NCBI GenBank assembly: GCA_902512655.1
Contig: CABXJR010000001.1
Coordinates: 51,896 to 115,895 of the forward strand
Reading direction: 5' to 3'
Source: an uncultured SAR86 cluster bacterium
GTDB lineage: Bacteria > Pseudomonadota > Gammaproteobacteria > Magnimaribacterales > D2472
Length of the DNA stretch: 64,000 nt
The notes under the pieces are model-generated. The model searched no databases. It was not told the origin of the DNA and worked only from the letters and a program-made list of their open reading frames with translations. The first letter of the stretch is position 1; each line of letters begins with the position of its first letter. This document shows, in pieces, positions 30,872-55,049 of the stretch. The position numbers were made by a program, and so were the translations under genes.

Positions 30872-31978
30872 TTAGTTAAGATTTTGGTTTAAGTTGTTTA
30901 TGAAATTCAAGCTGCCATGCAAACAAGTCATTTCTTTTTCAACTAATGCTATGGGCATTTGAGCTAGGATATCTCTATGGACTGATCTTCTATTGATTAA
31001 AAAATTATCCATAAAAATACTAACATCAATAAATTGATAAAGAGTACGCATTAGACTTCCTATAATATATATTCCCTTTCCAGGCATGTATATCAAAGCT
31101 AGTTCAGAAAGAATTTGCGAAAAAGCTACTAAAAATATATCTATGCTCTTTTGAGAATATTGATTCTGATTATATGTTGCAACTATCTCTTCTGCTGACT
31201 TCTTGGTTGTATCAAAGTATGAATAAATTCTTGACAATCCTCTCCCAGAGATTAAGTCCTCAACAGTATTAAAAGTTGAATTATTCAAGATTCCAAGCTC
31301 ATCTAACAATCCGGGAATTCTAAATAAGCTGTTACCAATTTCAGTTGGAAGAACAATCTCTTTTCCAACAATCTGAGCGGCCCCCAACCCAGTACCTGGG
31401 CCAATAATTAATGCCACATCATTAAAAGATTTTCCTGGATTAATTATTTTCATCTCATTCTTTTCTAAATGATAAAAAATATGGCCTATTGACTCCCAAT
31501 CATTAAGAATATGGCATGAATCTAAAGAAAATTTTCTTAAAATATTACTTTTATCTATAGTAAATTTTCTATTTGTCATCGAAATAGAGTCATTCAGTTT
31601 TGGACCAGCAATTGAGAAAACTATGTTTTTAATATGTGGATATTTATCCAGAAAATTTTGCAAGATCTTATCAAATGAATCCAGGGAATCTATTTTTTGT
31701 TTTTTTACATCTTTTATTTCATTTGAACCAATATCAGCAATCGCTGATCTAATATTTGTTCCACCAATATCAATTAATAAAACACCCCCCTCAAGATATA
31801 ATTTTTTCTTTCTTAAGTTTTGAGCGCTCTTATTGGGTTTAAAGCCAAGCTTATCTATTGAAACGAAAACTTTACTTTTAGTAGAATCGGCAACATTTAC
31901 TTCATTATTAATTACTCTTGATACAGTTTTAATGGATACGCCTGCATCTATAGAAACATCTTTTATGGTAACTGTCAT
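30872..31978 (-). CDS. LacI-type HTH fused to a glucokinase-family (Glk) domain
   Basis: Residues 1-60 are a LacI HTH: TIKDVSIDAGVSIKTVSRVINN...KLGFKPNKSAQNLR. The rest matches Glk: LLIDIGGTNIRSAI, MTNRKF, ILNDWES, IIGPGTGLGAA, LISGRGL. Confidence 0.8.
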   Translation of the reverse strand: MTVTIKDVSIDAGVSIKTVSRVINNEVNVADSTKSKVFVSIDKLGFKPNKSAQNLRKKKLYLEGGVLLIDIGGTNIRSAIADIGSNEIKDVKKQKIDSLDSFDKILQNFLDKYPHIKNIVFSIAGPKLNDSISMTNRKFTIDKSNILRKFSLDSCHILNDWESIGHIFYHLEKNEMKIINPGKSFNDVALIIGPGTGLGAAQIVGKEIVLPTEIGNSLFRIPGLLDELGILNNSTFNTVEDLISGRGLSRIYSYFDTTKKSAEEIVATYNQNQYSQKSIDIFLVAFSQILSELALIYMPGKGIYIIGSLMRTLYQFIDVSIFMDNFLINRRSVHRDILAQMPIALVEKEMTCLHGSLNFINNLNQNLN

Positions 31979-32055
31979 AATGTATTGGATTTAATTAATT
32001 TATCTTAATATGTTCTTATATTTGATTAAATACATTTAATGGAATTTTGTTGAGA

Positions 32056-32312
32056 CAAAAAAAAACAGAGCCAGGCTCTGTCTTTTCAGTTCGAGATTGG
32101 AAGGGGTCTAAAGTGAGAATCTCTTTAGCTCCTTGGAGGCTTTCTCTTTCCTCCTTGGTGGGTTACTAAGCTCTTTTTTATCGTCGACTCTTAGTATCGC
32201 TTTCGCCCTTCGTCTCTTCCTTCTCTTTCTCTCTTACTCCCGTCTGCAGTTGTTTGTAAGTCGGTCCGAGTTGGTCTATTAAATATACGCCTTTAGGAAA
32301 TAGAGTCAACAC
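32056..32312. repeat. 257-bp direct repeat, copy 1 (100% identical to 35427-35683)
   Basis: Base-by-base comparison of the two stretches at a constant offset of 3371 nt found no mismatch. Similarity resumes weakly (AAAAAAATATAACTA) after 8 diverged nt. Confidence 0.95.
32057..32275 (-). ncRNA. Candidate sRNA or leader RNA of about 220 nt (copy 1), purine-rich, GGA-containing
   Basis: Minus strand carries -35 TTGACT (32309-32304), a 16-nt spacer and -10 TATATT (32287-32282). The terminator is ACAGAG-ccugg-CUCUGU plus U9 (32081-32057). There is no ATG on either strand. Confidence 0.5.
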
Positions 32313-32433
32313 CTCTATATAAAAAAATATAACTAATTAAAAAATGAACAGGAAATGAGTTACTTATATGATAAAAACTAATCAAAAATGTTACTTGAAT
32401 GAATTACATCAGCATACTTTTAAAAATTACGAA

Positions 32434-33276
32434 TTACAAATTTTTTTTAAGAAATTTCTGACCAGCCTGCATGCCAATCAAATAGTCTGCTTTCATAATT
32501 TTGCGATTAGTTGTTGCTCGCTTTGTGCTTAGTCGATTTGGGGGACAGATTTGTTGAATCGTACAATCACTTGGTGGCTTATTGATAAACTCAAGTGCGG
32601 AATTATATGTTGCCGCATTAGATAATAAGGCTCTAGAAATATTTGGATACGATCTTGTTGCAATAGCAGCTAAGTGGTTTTCAAACTTAGTTTTTCTTAC
32701 AAAAGTTTGCTCATAGGTTCGAATAATAGTTATGTCTCGAGCCCCCATTTCATAAGCTTTTTTTACAGGTAGTGGATCGGTAATACCTCCGTCATATTTT
32801 CGCTTACCATTAAGCATTACTGCATTCTTCATCAACAAAGGTAAAGAGCCAGTTGCAAGCATTTCATTTATGTAATTTTTTTTGGATAGTTCGATATATT
32901 CCGGTTTAGCAGTTGTAGCATCGGAAATTACTACATAAAATTTTTTTCTTTCTAAATTTTGTTGCAATCGATCAAAATCTATTGGAAAAACCTTATTTGC
33001 ATCCTGGTAAAGCTTCTCGAAATTCATAATGCTTTTATTAAATAGAATATTTGAATATCTGACATATTTTTTTGAAGCAGAAAAAAGCATTTTGTCTAAA
33101 TTATAATCAGCAACTTTTAATAGATACCAAAGCTGAACCACTGCTCCGTTAGATACACCTAAATGAAGATCGAATGGGTTATACGATGCCTGAATAAATG
33201 AGTCTGTTACTCCAAACGAAAAGACCCCTCTGCTTCCGCCACCTTCAACAATTAATGCTCTTTTGGTTGATTGCAT
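32434..33276 (-). CDS. Patatin-like phospholipase
   Basis: Oxyanion motif VEGGGSRGVF, nucleophile GVSNG (GxSxG), catalytic Asp context YDGGITD. Confidence 0.85.
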   Translation of the reverse strand: MQSTKRALIVEGGGSRGVFSFGVTDSFIQASYNPFDLHLGVSNGAVVQLWYLLKVADYNLDKMLFSASKKYVRYSNILFNKSIMNFEKLYQDANKVFPIDFDRLQQNLERKKFYVVISDATTAKPEYIELSKKNYINEMLATGSLPLLMKNAVMLNGKRKYDGGITDPLPVKKAYEMGARDITIIRTYEQTFVRKTKFENHLAAIATRSYPNISRALLSNAATYNSALEFINKPPSDCTIQQICPPNRLSTKRATTNRKIMKADYLIGMQAGQKFLKKNL

Positions 33277-33312: not shown

Positions 33313-33939
33313 TTATAATTTAAAAGATTCAATAATGCCTGCAACTACAAACTCTATAGCAAGAGCCCCAAGCAATATCCCAAAGATCTTTTGCACAACG
33401 ATAATAATGGTAGGGCCAACTTTTTTTGAAAGACTGGCAGACAGCCACATTGCGAAAGCAACTAAAATAATAATTATTAAAATCGGAGTAAAATTTATTA
33501 GTATCTCAGTTGGGTCATTTGTATTCGATTCAGCTATAAGTAAAGCAGTAGTCATTGCACCAGGACCTGCTATCAAGGGAATTGCTAAAGGAAAAATTGC
33601 AAGAGATTGAATAGATTCATCATCAAGAGCTACTTCAGCTGTATTCTGTCGCCTAGTTTGTCTTTGCTCTAGAACCATTTGAAATGCAATTGCAACCAGA
33701 AATAAGCCTCCAATTATTTTAAATGAGCTCATAGAAATACCCATAACATCTAATATTGCAGTTCCAAATAAGTAAAATAAAGATAGTATAAAAAAAGAGA
33801 CTATGGTTGCTTGGATATAGATTTTCTTAATATCATTTTTATTTAAGCCTTGAGTAAGACTTGCAAAAATAGGAACCAGTGCAATTGGATCAACCGCAAC
33901 AAATAGTAAAATTGTATTTTCAAGTAACTGATCAAACAT
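33313..33939 (-). CDS. MarC-family (UPF0056) integral membrane protein
   Basis: 208 aa, 6 TM. The N-terminal LLFVAVDPIALVPIF and PLAIPLIAGPGAMTT motifs are typical of MarC/UPF0056. Confidence 0.8.
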   Translation of the reverse strand: MFDQLLENTILLFVAVDPIALVPIFASLTQGLNKNDIKKIYIQATIVSFFILSLFYLFGTAILDVMGISMSSFKIIGGLFLVAIAFQMVLEQRQTRRQNTAEVALDDESIQSLAIFPLAIPLIAGPGAMTTALLIAESNTNDPTEILINFTPILIIIILVAFAMWLSASLSKKVGPTIIIVVQKIFGILLGALAIEFVVAGIIESFKL

Positions 33940-33940
33940 T

Positions 33941-35353
33941 TTAGGTAGCTATTATTTGAATTGAGTCAGTGTGAGATGCAGAATACACCCCCGCTATTAA
34001 TACAAATTTTAGTGATTTTTTAGACTTCTTGCCAGACATTAAAATTGATTTGATCTTTGAGATTGTTTTTTTTTGATTGATTATTGATTTTATAAAATGC
34101 GGCTTCATTCCACCGATTATGCTTAAATGACAGTATGTATCATGATTATTTGTAAATGCATAAACAGGCATTCGAAATGGTTTTGTGTTTGAAACTACAT
34201 TTGCCGTCTGACCTGACCGAGTGATGACAACTATTCCATCTGCATTTATTCTTTCTGCAAGATCCCGAGCTCCTTGTGCAATATTTTGCCAGTCTGAATT
34301 ATCTTGAAGAAATTTTTCATAACCCAGAGTTCTAAATAGTTCTGTTCTAACAGCTATTTTCTTCAGCATTTTGATGCATTGAACGGGATATTTACCAACG
34401 CTGGTTTCACCTGAAAGCATTACAGCATCAGCTCCCTCATATATTGCGTTTGCAACATCAGTAACTTCTGCTCTTGTTGGAGTTGGATGATGGATCATAG
34501 ACTCCAATAAATGCGTTGCAACAACAGATCTTCTCCCCCATTTTGCAGTTGCATACATAATTCTTCTTTGTATATTAGGCAAATCAGCAAGGTCGGTCTC
34601 AATTCCCAAATCACCTCTTGCAACCATAACAATATCTGCAGCCTGCGTAATTTCATGAATATTATCTAGCCCCTCTTGATTTTCAATCTTTGCAATAATT
34701 TTTATTAATGATTTTTTTCTTTTCAATATGGATCTAAGATTAGATATATCTTGAGCAGATCTTACAAAGGACAAAGCAACGAAACTAACGTTGTGCTTGA
34801 TTCCAAAATTAATGTCCTTGCGATCTTTTTTAGTTATCGATGGTAAATCGACTCTAACTCCTGGAAGGTTAACATGACGTTTGCTACCAAGAGTTCCACC
34901 ATCAAGAACTTTGCACTTCAAACTTTCATTATCTTTTGCTAAGACTTTAAAATTAAGCAAGCCATTATCTATACTTATTTTGGAACCCTTATCTACACTT
35001 TTTATAAGGCCTTTGTAATTAATTTTAATTGAAGAAGTTTCCACATCAATATCATCTCTTATTGTAAGATTAACTATGTCACCTGTTTGGAGATCAATAT
35101 CCGATTGGTTAATACCTGTTCTAATTTCTGGCCCTTGTGTATCTAACAATATGCCTATTGGACCAAATGATTGTGACTGTTTTCTATTGACCCTTTGAAT
35201 TGACTCAATAATTTTTAATGCGTCAGTCTGTGATGCATGAGACATGTTTATTCTTGCTACATTCATGCCAGCAGCATGCAAGTCTTTTAACGACGAATAT
35301 TCGTTTGTGCTAGGGCCAATTGTTGCAATAATTTTTGTTTTAGTAATAAGCAT
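33941..35353 (-). CDS. pyk: Pyruvate kinase
   Basis: KIIATIGP, MNVARINMSH, IIAKIENQEG, IMVARGDLGIE and MLSGETSVGKYP are canonical pyruvate kinase motifs. Confidence 0.95.
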   Translation of the reverse strand: MLITKTKIIATIGPSTNEYSSLKDLHAAGMNVARINMSHASQTDALKIIESIQRVNRKQSQSFGPIGILLDTQGPEIRTGINQSDIDLQTGDIVNLTIRDDIDVETSSIKINYKGLIKSVDKGSKISIDNGLLNFKVLAKDNESLKCKVLDGGTLGSKRHVNLPGVRVDLPSITKKDRKDINFGIKHNVSFVALSFVRSAQDISNLRSILKRKKSLIKIIAKIENQEGLDNIHEITQAADIVMVARGDLGIETDLADLPNIQRRIMYATAKWGRRSVVATHLLESMIHHPTPTRAEVTDVANAIYEGADAVMLSGETSVGKYPVQCIKMLKKIAVRTELFRTLGYEKFLQDNSDWQNIAQGARDLAERINADGIVVITRSGQTANVVSNTKPFRMPVYAFTNNHDTYCHLSIIGGMKPHFIKSIINQKKTISKIKSILMSGKKSKKSLKFVLIAGVYSASHTDSIQIIAT

Positions 35354-35426
35354 GGGCAGGATGATACTCCATTAAAATTTAAAATGAAGCAATGGTATTG
35401 ATTTATGTATGTTAGCTTATATAAGG

Positions 35427-35683
35427 CAAAAAAAAACAGAGCCAGGCTCTGTCTTTTCAGTTCGAGATTGGAAGGGGTCTAAAGTGAGAATCTCTTTAGC
35501 TCCTTGGAGGCTTTCTCTTTCCTCCTTGGTGGGTTACTAAGCTCTTTTTTATCGTCGACTCTTAGTATCGCTTTCGCCCTTCGTCTCTTCCTTCTCTTTC
35601 TCTCTTACTCCCGTCTGCAGTTGTTTGTAAGTCGGTCCGAGTTGGTCTATTAAATATACGCCTTTAGGAAATAGAGTCAACAC
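35427..35683. repeat. 257-bp direct repeat, copy 2 (100% identical to 32056-32312)
   Basis: See copy 1. Offset 3371 nt. Confidence 0.95.
35428..35646 (-). ncRNA. Candidate sRNA or leader RNA of about 220 nt (copy 2)
   Basis: Same promoter and terminator as copy 1, shifted by 3371 nt. The terminator ends 74 nt upstream of the pyk ATG (35353). Confidence 0.5.
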
Positions 35684-35718
35684 TTTTTATTAAAAAAATA
35701 TAACTATTTTAATAAAAA

Positions 35719-37731
35719 TTATTTATTCCATTTATTTTCATAAAAATCAGCTAAAACATCGAAGGCTGCTTTTTTATTTCCATTCTCATCAATTAAACCT
35801 TTCCTATTATAAAAATCTTGAATACCAGGCAACGGTCTTAACATAGCTCTGAAATCTTTGAAGACCCATGGGCTAATTCCTTTAATTTGAGGGTTATTGG
35901 AAAGCATTTCTAATTGATGCCTGTAGAGTCTAGCTTGATATTCTTCGGACCAGATTTTATTTGAATGATTTCCATATTTTGCTCCAGCACCAAATTCAGA
36001 TATATGGATAGGCTTATTAAAAACCGAGCTTATTTTGATATTAGGCAGAACCTCGAACATTAATTTCCTAAGCGTTCCTTCAGGAATCATCATTTGATCT
36101 GTAAAAAATGTTACGTAATACCAACCAAAGTATTCATTGTAAGAAATTAGATCAACACTCTTGCCAAGCGGATCATCAATTGAGATAGAAAAATTTAATT
36201 CACTATCAATTGGTATATTTGCTTGATCTAGGATGAATTGAAAAATAGCTTTTTCTTGCGGATTAACCCATTGAGATTTAACTCCCTGCAATGCTAACAC
36301 TAATACCAATGCTTTAAACTGTTCCTCGCTACCTGACAAAAGAGCTGCTGTTGTTAATCGCGTTGAATCAATAGCTTCTATCTCTGAGAGAAGTGTATTT
36401 AAAAATTTCATTCTTGATGAGGATAATGGAGTTTCATTTGCTACAGACCAAACCACTACAGATGCTCTATTTTGATCTCTTTGCACTAATCTTTTAATTT
36501 GGTTTATTGCGATATTCAGTGTTTCAGAATTATCCCAGTCAATATTCCAATAAACAGGAACCTCTTCCCACAACATTAAACCTAATCTGTCTGCAACCTT
36601 TGCTAGATGGCGAGTATATGGATAATGAGCTGCTCTTATAAAATTAATATTAAGATCTTTAGCCATTAAAAGAAGGTCTTGAAAATGCTCTTTTGAAAAG
36701 GCTGGGCCTGGAATTCCAATAGGCTCAGAGTGCATAGCGATTCCCTTAAACTGAATCTCACTATTATTTAGATATATATTTTGACCTTCCACTTTGATGG
36801 AACGAAATCCTATTTCATCAGAAATAATTTCTTGATCAGAAGAAATGATTACCTTGTAAAGTTTTGGATCAGTTGGCGACCAAAGTCTAGGAGCAATTAT
36901 TATACTTTCTCTAATAAATCCGACAGTATTGGTTATAAATTCATCTTTAAATTGGAGCTCAGGAATTTCAAGCACAATCCTTTGCCCTGAAAGCTCCTGG
37001 TTCATTTCAAGTTTAAATAGAGCTTCGAAGAAGTTTTCTGGATTTAACTGCAGATATGCATTTTGTATAAATTTTTTCGGAGTTTCGACTATGTATACAT
37101 CGCCAACAATCCCTCCCCAAGGCCACCAATCAGTTTTTTGCGTAGGAACAGAGGACTGATTAAGCGTATTGTCAGTTTGCACTAGTAGAATATTCTCTCC
37201 ATTTTTTAAATGTTTGGAAATATCAAAATTAAATGGGACGTAGCCACCTTCAAATTCTCCAATGATTGAACCATTTATAAATATCTTAGTAGTGAAGTTG
37301 CTGCCTTCTATATAGAGATGAGTTATAGCTTCTTTTTTAGGCTGATAATTAAACTTTTTGTAGAGCCAGACAGGTCCTCTATAAAAAAATAGTTTTTTAT
37401 CTATAGCATTCCAAGCACCAGGAATTTGAATTTTTGCTGCAGTATCGAAATTGTATTCAATCAATTCCATGCCTGTTTTTTGGGTTTTATTTTTAGGAAA
37501 TCCTCCAAAAAATGATGACTCTGGCAAGCCGTTATTCATAGGGTCAACTATGTAACTCCATTCACCGTTTAAAGTAGTAATTTGACGTGAATCTATCCAG
37601 CCAATTAAATTATCTGGAGAAGGATAATTGGGAGCCTCTCTTTCAAAAAAACTATCTGCATCAGATTTATCTTCAGAGTATAAACTGATTGTAAAAACTG
37701 CTAAAAAGAAAAAGAAAATTCTTGAAATCAT
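35719..37731 (-). CDS. Glycoside hydrolase family 2 enzyme (beta-glucuronidase/galactosidase-like), secreted
   Basis: Signal peptide. Sugar-binding, Ig-like and TIM-barrel order. IRAAHYP, the acid/base WSVANE, and the SEFG nucleophile context. Confidence 0.8.
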   Translation of the reverse strand: MISRIFFFFLAVFTISLYSEDKSDADSFFEREAPNYPSPDNLIGWIDSRQITTLNGEWSYIVDPMNNGLPESSFFGGFPKNKTQKTGMELIEYNFDTAAKIQIPGAWNAIDKKLFFYRGPVWLYKKFNYQPKKEAITHLYIEGSNFTTKIFINGSIIGEFEGGYVPFNFDISKHLKNGENILLVQTDNTLNQSSVPTQKTDWWPWGGIVGDVYIVETPKKFIQNAYLQLNPENFFEALFKLEMNQELSGQRIVLEIPELQFKDEFITNTVGFIRESIIIAPRLWSPTDPKLYKVIISSDQEIISDEIGFRSIKVEGQNIYLNNSEIQFKGIAMHSEPIGIPGPAFSKEHFQDLLLMAKDLNINFIRAAHYPYTRHLAKVADRLGLMLWEEVPVYWNIDWDNSETLNIAINQIKRLVQRDQNRASVVVWSVANETPLSSSRMKFLNTLLSEIEAIDSTRLTTAALLSGSEEQFKALVLVLALQGVKSQWVNPQEKAIFQFILDQANIPIDSELNFSISIDDPLGKSVDLISYNEYFGWYYVTFFTDQMMIPEGTLRKLMFEVLPNIKISSVFNKPIHISEFGAGAKYGNHSNKIWSEEYQARLYRHQLEMLSNNPQIKGISPWVFKDFRAMLRPLPGIQDFYNRKGLIDENGNKKAAFDVLADFYENKWNK

Positions 37732-47591: not shown

Positions 47592-47693
47592 TATTAAATT
47601 TACTTGGCCTTTTATTTTGGCACAAAAGTCTTTTCTAGCTTTTTTATTGATGTTTACATTAAGTTCTTTCTGAATAAGAATTAACAAAGCAAC

Positions 47694-47734
47694 TGGAGCG
47701 GGAAACCAGGTTCGAACTGGCGACCTCAACTTGG
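47694..47734 (-). other. Degenerate 3' fragment of tRNA-Gly(GCC), fragment a
   Basis: 37 nt are identical to 50305-50341 (CCA end, T-arm, through CCTCAAC). One base is then missing and similarity is lost after TTGG. There is no 5' acceptor strand. Confidence 0.85.
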
Positions 47735-47762
47735 GAGAGTTGTGCTCCACCCTGAATTGTTT

Positions 47763-48977: not shown

Positions 48978-49153
48978 TATTCCTATTTTCCATTTCAGAT
49001 TTTATATAAATAATACACTGAAACATTACACAAAATACCGTACCTACTTCGTACCTACAAATAAATAATTGAAACATAGCAATAAGCACTAAAGCCTTCT
49101 ATGGGGTATTAGCTATAAAGCCTGTTCTAATGGGGTTAAAGTCTTGGTGGAAG

Positions 49154-49202
49154 TGGAGCGGGAAACCAGGTTCGAACTGGCGACCTCAACCTTGGCAAGG
49201 TT
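49154..49202 (-). other. 3' fragment of tRNA-Gly(GCC), fragment b
   Basis: 49 nt are identical to 50305-50353 (CCA end through the anticodon loop and 4 nt of the 5' anticodon-stem strand), followed by unrelated sequence. Confidence 0.9.
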
Positions 49203-50137: not shown

Positions 50138-50304
50138 AACTTTCCCACCTGTATAAAGTTTCTAAAAATTTTTAAATGTAAAAATAAAAACAATTATGAC
50201 GCTTTGTCTAAACAGTTGCTAATTTTTAAACTCCTAACTTCATCATCTATTTTTAAAAAGTGCTACGAAAGTACTTAGTTAAAATCGTGAGAAAAGCTTT
50301 AAAT

Positions 50305-50380
50305 TGGAGCGGGAAACCAGGTTCGAACTGGCGACCTCAACCTTGGCAAGGTTGCGCTCTACCAACTGAGCTATTCCCGC
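50305..50380 (-). tRNA. tRNA-Gly (anticodon GCC), intact
   Basis: The reverse complement is GCGGGAATAGCTCAGTTGGTAGAGCGCAACCTTGCCAAGGTTGAGGTCGCCAGTTCGAACCTGGTTTCCCGCTCCA: a full cloverleaf with anticodon loop TTGCCAA. Confidence 0.95.
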
Positions 50381-50468
50381 TTTTGAGTTGGATAATATAC
50401 ATCCAAGGGAATATGCATTCAAGCTTAAAAAGACTGATATTTAGCAGCTTTTAAAAATGTAAAAATTT

Positions 50469-54957: not shown

Positions 54958-54997
54958 CCTTGGCAAGGTTGCGCTCTACCAACTGAGCTATTCCCGC
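54958..54997 (-). other. 5' fragment of tRNA-Gly(GCC), fragment d, with diverged upstream flank
   Basis: 40 nt are identical to 50341-50380 (anticodon stem-loop, D-arm, 5' acceptor strand). The adjoining 43 nt (54998-55040) match the flank of the intact gene (50381-50423) at about 35/43 positions by manual alignment. Confidence 0.85.
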
Positions 54998-55049
54998 TTT
55001 TGAGTTGGTTAATGTACATCCATGACATAAAGCATTCAAGAGAATTCTG

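Follow-up and report, generated by a model that had tools for sequence, protein, structure and literature searches.

A second, identical copy of the IMES-1 RNA gene upstream of pyruvate kinase in a SAR86 genome region for sugar and pyruvate catabolism

The repeat and the transcription unit within it

In a 64,000-nucleotide stretch of a contig assigned to an uncultured SAR86 cluster bacterium (CABXJR010000001.1 of assembly GCA_902512655.1, positions 51,896 to 115,895; the whole stretch is referred to here as the window), a first-pass annotation had drawn attention to an RNA module, running from promoter to terminator and present in two copies in direct orientation, of which the second lies immediately 5' of the gene for pyruvate kinase (pyk). 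Re-measurement bore out that description: 257 nucleotides of copy 2 (35427-35683) equal those of copy 1 (32056-32312) with zero mismatches, both on the minus strand and 3.37 kb apart, with promoter hexamers and a terminator hairpin at each copy, and the exact identity ends abruptly, extending not one base further on either side. The 8 nucleotides beyond the -35 hexamer are partly unlike between the copies (TTTTTATT as against CTCTATAT on the plus strand), and past this gap, as had also been noted, a common stretch resumes with the 15-mer AAAAAAATATAACTA (35692-35706 and 32321-32335). A repeat search of the window returned the pair as 292 nucleotides at 97% identity (32053-32344 and 35424-35715), together with two further repeat families derived from a glycine tRNA (tRNA-Gly) gene; chance could not plausibly yield an exact repeat of 257 nucleotides in a window that has no long repeats besides.

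When the window was scanned against Rfam, both copies matched the IMES-1 RNA motif (RF02034), scoring 198.1 bits where the gathering score is 81 (E = 5.7e-45), with the match covering model positions 1-191 of 191 and lying at 35452-35641 in copy 2 and at 32081-32270 in copy 1. The RNA module is an already catalogued RNA family that had gone unrecognised, and the segment 35427-35706 can be assigned with near certainty as a copy of the IMES-1 gene: the gathering score is exceeded, the helices covary, the conserved loops are present, the origin is marine plankton, and no difference from the motif was found at the level of the RNA. Rfam types the family as a gene and not as a cis-regulatory element. 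A protein-coding reading was considered and rejected, as the only open reading frame on the same strand starts in the promoter, upstream of the transcription start site, and substitutions in the stems are compensatory.

The IMES-1 family is said to have been described in 2009, by Weinberg and co-workers and by Shi and co-workers (Nature), from marine metagenomes and metatranscriptomes; it was reportedly defined on metagenome fragments, without an assigned organism or function, and reportedly proved exceptionally abundant, ranking among the top non-ribosomal RNAs of surface-ocean metatranscriptomes. Full-text searches found no literature tying IMES-1 to SAR86 and nothing of relevance on small RNAs, CsrA or Hfq in SAR86, and the paper on a SAR86 isolate does not mention non-coding RNAs (PMC11582366). 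While the family itself is already known, its genomic context (SAR86, two copies and a catabolism locus) appears to be new. That pyk is preceded by a second identical copy is ordinary in itself, this being a paralogous gene of a catalogued small RNA, and the added value lies in that context: the SAR86 host, the two concerted copies, the sugar and pyruvate locus, and the rearrangement of a gene cassette.

Read along the minus strand, the unit comprises an A/T-rich element, 8 nucleotides, a promoter, a purine-rich sequence of approximately 220 nucleotides, a hairpin and a run of nine U residues. The A/T-rich element of copy 2 (35692-35706; TAGTTATATTTTTTT on the transcribed strand) is common to both window copies, and a T-run at its position is kept across SAR86 lineages; it resembles an UP element and may act as one. 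The sigma-70-type promoter (35653-35680, minus strand) consists of a -35 hexamer, TTGACT, at 35680-35675, a 16-nucleotide spacer, and a -10 hexamer, TATATT, at 35658-35653. A promoter scan found this TTGACT-16-TATATT arrangement at both copies, agreeing with the consensus at 10 of 12 positions; its position would place the transcription start site near 35646-35648, and its sequence suggests a strong promoter. The RNA itself, predicted to be approximately 220 nucleotides long (35427-35648, minus strand) from the Rfam match, the minimum free energy (MFE) fold and the limits of conservation, ends in an intrinsic terminator (35427-35452) formed by a ACAGAGCC-UGG-CUCUGU hairpin at 35436-35452 and the U9 run; in the MFE fold, pairing between an A-tract and the U-tract lengthens the terminator stem to 13 base pairs. 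Copy 1, with its promoter at 32282-32309 and its A/T element at 32321-32335, occupies 32056-32335 on the same strand.

Comparison with homologues delimited the same unit. Conservation takes in the A/T element and the promoter hexamers, skips the spacer between them, covers the whole RNA and stops at the U-run. The hexamers show little or no variation in any homologue, although the spacer varies; among 57 homologues the conservation of the RNA starts just past the -10 hexamer and the terminator stem and its run of eight or nine U residues are invariant, unlike the flanks of the unit, which are not conserved. These limits argue that the element is an autonomous transcription unit. Its terminator is symmetric (A-run, hairpin, U-run; 35427-35452 and 32056-32081) and was scored on the opposite strand too. 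In other loci, given here as L numbers, convergent eda or oadB genes stop 1-17 nucleotides from the hairpin (L012, 3126-3136; L016, 7070-7080), and because they end so near to it, transcription arriving from either side is probably terminated at this hairpin where these genes converge.

The genes around the two copies all lie on the minus strand. A gene for a glycoside hydrolase of family 2 (GH2; 35719-37731; Pfam GH2 domains) ends 12 nucleotides upstream of the A/T element of copy 2, and pyk (33941-35353; Pfam PK and PK_C; TIGR01064 at 472 bits against a cut-off of 306) begins, at its ATG (35353), 74 nucleotides downstream of the terminator of that copy. It is followed by a marC-family gene (33313-33939; Pfam MarC) and a patatin-like gene (32434-33276; Pfam Patatin and DUF6363), and then, 78 nucleotides downstream of copy 1, by a gene (30872-31978) in which a LacI-type helix-turn-helix (HTH) domain (Pfam LacI, amino acids 4-49) is fused to a glucokinase fold (Pfam Glucokinase, amino acids 67-359). 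Both terminator-to-gene distances agree with the first-pass annotation, whose naming of the latter gene as the entry kinase of glycolysis is insecure: the fusion scores below every curated NCBIfam glucokinase cut-off. On the SAR86 contigs L116 and L019, separate full-length genes are found for LacI, for a Na+/solute symporter (ssf) and for a glucokinase (glk) of 324 amino acids, and in the window lineage, which includes L021 and L008, the HTH runs straight into glk, while ssf and the LacI sensor domain are missing; the HTH-glk fusion may be a regulator that uses the kinase fold as its sensor. In the 74-nucleotide spacer before pyk (35354-35426, minus strand), as in the pyk spacers of L003, L011, L019 and L020, a conserved motif of the form TTCAYTTTAA ... 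GGAGTATCAT ends approximately 9 nucleotides before the ATG. It could be a promoter belonging to pyk itself, yielding a nearly leaderless mRNA, in which case pyk would be independent of read-through from IMES-1.

Structure, conservation and hosts of the RNA

The family structure, which comprises the outer and inner parts of helix P1, a closing helix, helices P2, P3 and P4, and the terminator, was examined on an alignment of 57 distinct sequences. Pairing is kept in 94.3% of cells across the alignment, both partners have changed in 16 of the 40 base pairs, and covariation scores 0.289, a value that none of 500 shuffles attained and that compares with at most 0.087 when pairing partners were slid. 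Folded alone, the window RNA adopted the family structure at its MFE (-54.5 kcal/mol; z = -2.3). The covariation lends the Rfam structure strong support. Approximately 120 of the 234 alignment columns are invariant, and most of these are unpaired; in particular, the core of loop 1, CAACUGCAGACGGGA, is invariant in all 93 distinct sequences among the matches listed. The resulting architecture is that of a 5' hairpin with an invariant loop of 18 nucleotides and a multi-helix 3' domain. A pattern of this kind, in which stems covary while the adjoining loops and junctions stay the same, is characteristic of RNAs that have a defined tertiary fold or constant partners, and is atypical of antisense small RNAs that act through a seed.

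The distribution of the family was established by two scans. The first, of one genome per GTDB species with an 18-mer from loop 1 as query, returned 30 loci, in 23 of which IMES-1 was confirmed by nhmmer; nearly all of these 23 are in SAR86 single-cell genomes or metagenome-assembled genomes (MAGs). The second, of metagenomes with a pattern anchored in helix P3 and not including the loop 1 core, returned at least 120 further contigs with IMES-1, of marine origin. In total at least 156 matches were collected, of which at least 104 are near full length and at least 93 distinct. The window, with a G+C content of approximately 34%, aligns with SAR86 contigs at 81-88% identity over 2-7 kb and is identical to none of them, and on the strength of these alignments it is placed in a SAR86 (Magnimaribacterales) genome. 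The analysis ties IMES-1 to SAR86, in which it is usually encoded twice and in which its copies evolve in concert. A SAR86 isolate is now in culture (PMC11582366), and the function of the RNA is therefore approachable by experiment.

A few occurrences fall outside this pattern. IMES-1 was found on contigs binned elsewhere than in SAR86, namely L023 (PAEE01000021.1, 'Methanobacteriota archaeon MED870'), L026 (a 'Woeseiaceae' MAG) and L030 (UBA3413). The first carries the full SAR86 gene order of malate synthase (MalSynG), DUF1330, GH2 and IMES-1 at approximately 80% nucleotide identity to the window, and because it does, these contigs are likely to be mis-binned. Three IMG/VR contigs (L151-L153) carry a partial IMES-1 at one end, adjoining sequence unlike any SAR86 locus compared; an origin in phage was considered for them and set aside, since only a partial IMES-1 at the contig end is present and the contigs look like chimeric assemblies. 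Many metagenome contigs (L031-L150) start or stop within IMES-1. It seems that the repeat, or else the very abundant transcript, breaks or chimerises assemblies, and the practical lesson is that the IMES-1 repeat interrupts metagenome assemblies and seeds chimeric contigs.

Readings of the function of the RNA

The combination of covarying stems with nearly invariant unpaired bases led us to infer an RNA that acts in trans and contacts a partner, and the copy in front of pyk is likely to be an autonomous, structured, partner-binding RNA of this kind. IMES-1 would be a very abundant RNA whose loops and junctions contact that partner, which would most probably be a protein (engaged by sequestration or in a ribonucleoprotein) and possibly another IMES-1 molecule. 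The near-consensus promoter, the UP-like element and the presence of two gene copies give indirect support to high expression. Between partner binding by a structured RNA and action as a base-pairing small RNA, the balance of the evidence tips somewhat towards the former; antisense regulation and a role as leader of pyk are not favoured. Several points weigh against this account. The very high abundance of IMES-1 in marine metatranscriptomes is that reportedly described in the two papers of 2009, and the partner is postulated. A base-pairing small RNA dependent on Hfq could likewise have such a long U-tail and such A/G-rich tracts. The synteny of IMES-1 with genes of carbon metabolism may be inherited rather than functional. 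Finally, where patatin and marC genes are co-oriented with IMES-1 they begin only 20-35 nucleotides past the terminator, and because the gap is so short they probably receive read-through or internal transcription, which may have a side-effect in cis.

The alternative that survives best, though it is unlikely, is that IMES-1 is an Hfq-type small RNA that pairs with mRNAs of carbon metabolism, or a CrcZ-like sponge for Hfq, acting through its U-tail and single-stranded A-R-N repeats. Multi-copy sponge RNAs with ties to carbon control are familiar from Gammaproteobacteria, among them CrcZ/CrcY and CsrB/CsrC. The invariant run of eight or nine U residues after the terminator hairpin would fit such a role, as would the A/G-rich loops of P2, P3 and P4 and the purine tract AGAAAGAGAAGGAAGAGA, which in the window copy amounts to six A-R-N triplets. 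The A-R-N register is nevertheless interrupted in many homologues (column 70 is A, U or C), and conservation spans the whole RNA with no short seed. Matches antisense to the invariant loop occur in the window at chance level only: a search of the window for targets of loop 1 returned the gene itself and one such match, with three mismatches. Genes for Hfq, ProQ and CsrA were not found by tblastn, in a search that took in the 64-kb window and 0.99 Mb of IMES-1-bearing loci and was not genome-wide.

A second and improbable alternative to a protein partner is that IMES-1 assembles with itself through kissing loops, as a symmetric dimer or a higher-order assembly of RNA only. GOLLD is reported to stem from the programme of discovery that also yielded IMES-1. 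The ornate RNAs OLE, GOLLD and ROOL form homo-oligomeric assemblies (Kretsch et al. 2025, PMC12286853). They share with IMES-1 a highly conserved, complex fold and an unknown biochemical role, and differ from it in size, IMES-1 being much smaller (approximately 220 nucleotides). In its two largest and most conserved hairpin loops IMES-1 carries self-complementary hexamers that could mediate self-association. These are CUGCAG in the loop of P1 (35609-35626) and GUCGAC in the loop of P2 (35542-35563), both on the minus strand. The first is invariant. The second varies (GUUGAC, GUCGGC, GUCGAU and GUGCAU, including a central swap of CG to GC), but it is self-complementary in every one of the 57 distinct sequences (342 of 342 cells). 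Self-assembly is nonetheless a prediction from two palindromes and few independent substitution events; intramolecular pairs (102-117 and 103-116; RNAalifold, column 103) offer another account of the loop 2 changes. Palindromic hexamers are not in excess in the RNA as a whole (2 observed, against a mean of 1.96 in dinucleotide shuffles), and the statistic for their placement, approximately 0.0025, is post hoc. Were self-assembly true, IMES-1 would serve SAR86 as a structural element or scaffold and not as a classical gene regulator.

Very doubtful is the possibility that the element is a cis-regulatory leader or attenuator, similar to a riboswitch, which steers transcription of pyk and glk through its terminator. 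A leader role for the two kinases was implied by the first-pass annotation, and it draws on the position of both window copies 74-78 nucleotides upstream of co-oriented genes of carbon metabolism, on the many genomes in which the next gene begins 20-80 nucleotides past the terminator with scant room for a promoter of its own, and on the co-oriented gene that follows in 50 of 103 copies. That count comes from a census of the 103 copies, among the matches listed, that have at least 600 nucleotides of downstream sequence, in which the nearest downstream gene was classified. The next gene is convergent in 47 (OadB or the KDPG aldolase gene eda, ending 1-17 nucleotides from the terminator). Those on the same strand are a mixed set, made up of patatin-like genes (26), pyk (10), marC (4), HTH-glk (2) and others such as ssf (8), and the remaining 6 copies have no gene within 400 nucleotides. 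The convergent genes, together with the mixture of co-oriented ones, led us to reject a role as leader. A leader would be known by lying constantly 5' of co-oriented genes that belong to a single functional class; this was not found, and the model is largely refuted by the census. It is further opposed by the strength and invariance of the terminator stem and its U-run, by the failure to find a conserved alternative pairing able to disrupt the terminator, and by the filing of RF02034 as a gene in Rfam. IMES-1 is, very probably, a stand-alone RNA gene whose product acts in trans.

Least probable among these functional alternatives is a sponge resembling CsrB or RsmZ that takes up CsrA through GGA motifs. 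The gammaproteobacterial host, the abundant RNA in two copies, the locus of carbon metabolism, and the presence of GGA in the loop of hairpin 1 (ACGGGAG) and in a single strand (AAGGAGC) all recall such a system. The many GGA motifs conserved in hairpin loops that define CsrB and Rsm RNAs are lacking, however: only two are conserved (in loop 1 and at the P3-P4 junction), and the others vary (GGA to GGU or GGC; AAGGAGG to AAGAAGG or AAGAGUU). There was no Rfam match to the CsrB, CsrC or Rsm families and no palindrome similar to a GacA box upstream, and csrA is among the genes not found in the window or the 0.99 Mb of IMES-1-bearing loci. In more general terms, CsrB/CsrC, RsmY/RsmZ and CrcZ/CrcY are stand-alone, highly expressed small RNA genes with an intrinsic terminator, often have two or three paralogues and are linked to central carbon metabolism, and in these respects IMES-1 may be likened to them. 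They differ from it in showing no similarity of sequence or covariance model; the A-rich motifs of IMES-1 are imperfect, and its complex multi-helix fold with invariant junctions is unlike the string of similar hairpins from which those RNAs are built. A further point of comparison is bacterial 6S RNA, which is abundant and structured, binds protein and measures approximately 200 nucleotides, but IMES-1 lacks its rod with a central bubble, and the 5' and 3' ends of IMES-1 do not pair with one another. Membership of the 6S family was rejected on the 5' hairpin and multi-helix 3' domain seen instead, and no match to RF00013 was obtained.

Homogenised paralogues in a rearranging region

Two direct copies of IMES-1 on one contig were found at at least 13 loci, and in three further genomes both copies are on one contig at separate loci, one such contig being 1.19 Mb long with exactly two matches to the 18-mer. 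Outside the window the copies mostly lie 1.0-1.8 kb apart, or else more than 8 kb. The paralogues are 100% identical in the window, L019 and L021, and 98.4%, 97.7%, 97% and 93% identical in L042, L015, L004 and L027, respectively. In genomes of a close clade, IMES-1 is 97-99% identical where the flanking DNA is 75-88% identical, a disparity that indicates strong purifying selection. Private variants were also found in both paralogues of a single genome (a C in the promoter spacer and an A in a loop in L021; the spacer sequence ATCG in L015), and this sharing indicates gene conversion. The second-position copies of L004, L015 and L027 are closer to each other than to their own paralogues, and the duplication is therefore older than these species. 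For the perfect identity of the window copies the first-pass annotation had offered three explanations, of which gene conversion and strong selection both stand. Very recent duplication does not, as SAR86 lineages with only 70-88% identity in their flanking DNA have the two-copy layout in common, and in some genomes the paralogues are 3-7% apart and group by position. The identity is the outcome of homogenisation and constraint and not of recency. Two copies would probably serve gene dosage.

This behavior corresponds to the concerted evolution of multi-copy RNA genes (rRNA operons, and paralogues of tRNAs and small RNAs), in that the IMES-1 paralogues are closer to each other than orthologues are and share private variants. 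It differs in two respects: (i) homogenisation is incomplete in several SAR86 genomes (93-98%); and (ii) the repeats are direct, lie 1-10 kb apart, and also mark a cassette that can be deleted and shuffled. That the repeat is instead a duplication made in assembly, or a mobile or selfish element that contains no gene, can be almost wholly discounted, although perfect identity is suspicious in itself and many metagenome contigs break within IMES-1. Each window copy is bordered left and right by unique sequence, and the two-copy arrangement, with paralogues 93-100% identical, was met again in SAR86 single-cell genomes, MAGs and metagenome contigs obtained independently. Among the matches listed a locus has at most two copies, always within the one chromosomal region; terminal inverted repeats, target-site duplications and transposase genes were not noted; and the covarying structure points to selection on the RNA.

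In all lineages IMES-1 lies within one region, which holds genes for GH2, a glycoside hydrolase of family 3 (GH3), ssf, glk, pgl, zwf-edd-eda, pyk, oadAB and malate synthase. The modules that compose it are MalSynG-DUF1330-(M20)-GH2; IMES-1, a patatin-like gene, an isochorismatase-like gene and IMES-1 again; eda-edd-zwf or oadB-oadA, convergent on IMES-1; pyk-marC; lacI; and ssf-glk-pgl-GH3. Of the genes upstream of the first copy GH2 is the most conserved as an anchor, preceding IMES-1 in at least 30 copies, and the order MalSynG-DUF1330-(M20)-GH2-IMES-1 recurs. The proposal that the module is paired specifically with pyk or glk failed, as one of these is the next gene in only 12 of the 103 copies. 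A weaker form of it stood: on comparison of synteny in related genomes, the surroundings proved to be a region of sugar and pyruvate catabolism in every lineage, despite many local rearrangements. The gene accordingly stays inside a region of glucose, Entner-Doudoroff and pyruvate genes, and a functional tie of IMES-1 to carbon catabolism can be put forward only tentatively, being rather less probable than its absence.

Within this region the content between the copies varies. In the window they enclose a 3.4-kb cassette of pyk, marC and the patatin-like gene; in L021 they enclose marC and the patatin-like gene; and in L019, L004, L015 and L027 they enclose the patatin-like gene alone, with pyk-marC, marC or ssf-glk following the second copy. 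L008, from the single-cell genome AG-457-D18, has a single copy, in the order GH2, IMES-1, HTH-glk, and its alignment joins position 32342 of the window to 35424, the exact product expected of loss of the cassette between the repeats. As this junction is the one that loop-out recombination would leave, the direct repeats are, by comparison of these contigs, markers of a region of permuted gene order from which a cassette can be lost.

The other two repeat families of the window belong to a separate region, around tRNA-Gly(GCC) at 50305-50380 on the minus strand. Two partial copies of the 3' half of this gene and one 83-nucleotide copy of its 5' half plus flank, at 87-98% identity, give repeat coordinates of 47691-47742, 49151-49202, 50302-50423 and 54958-55040. 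No integrase was seen near these copies. They bracket small cassettes with genes for a DUF1214 protein, a 298-amino-acid open reading frame of unknown nature, cytochrome c with a COX1-like protein, an AurF-like di-iron protein and Usp, and the region looks like either the scars of serial integration at a tRNA gene or a hypervariable island.

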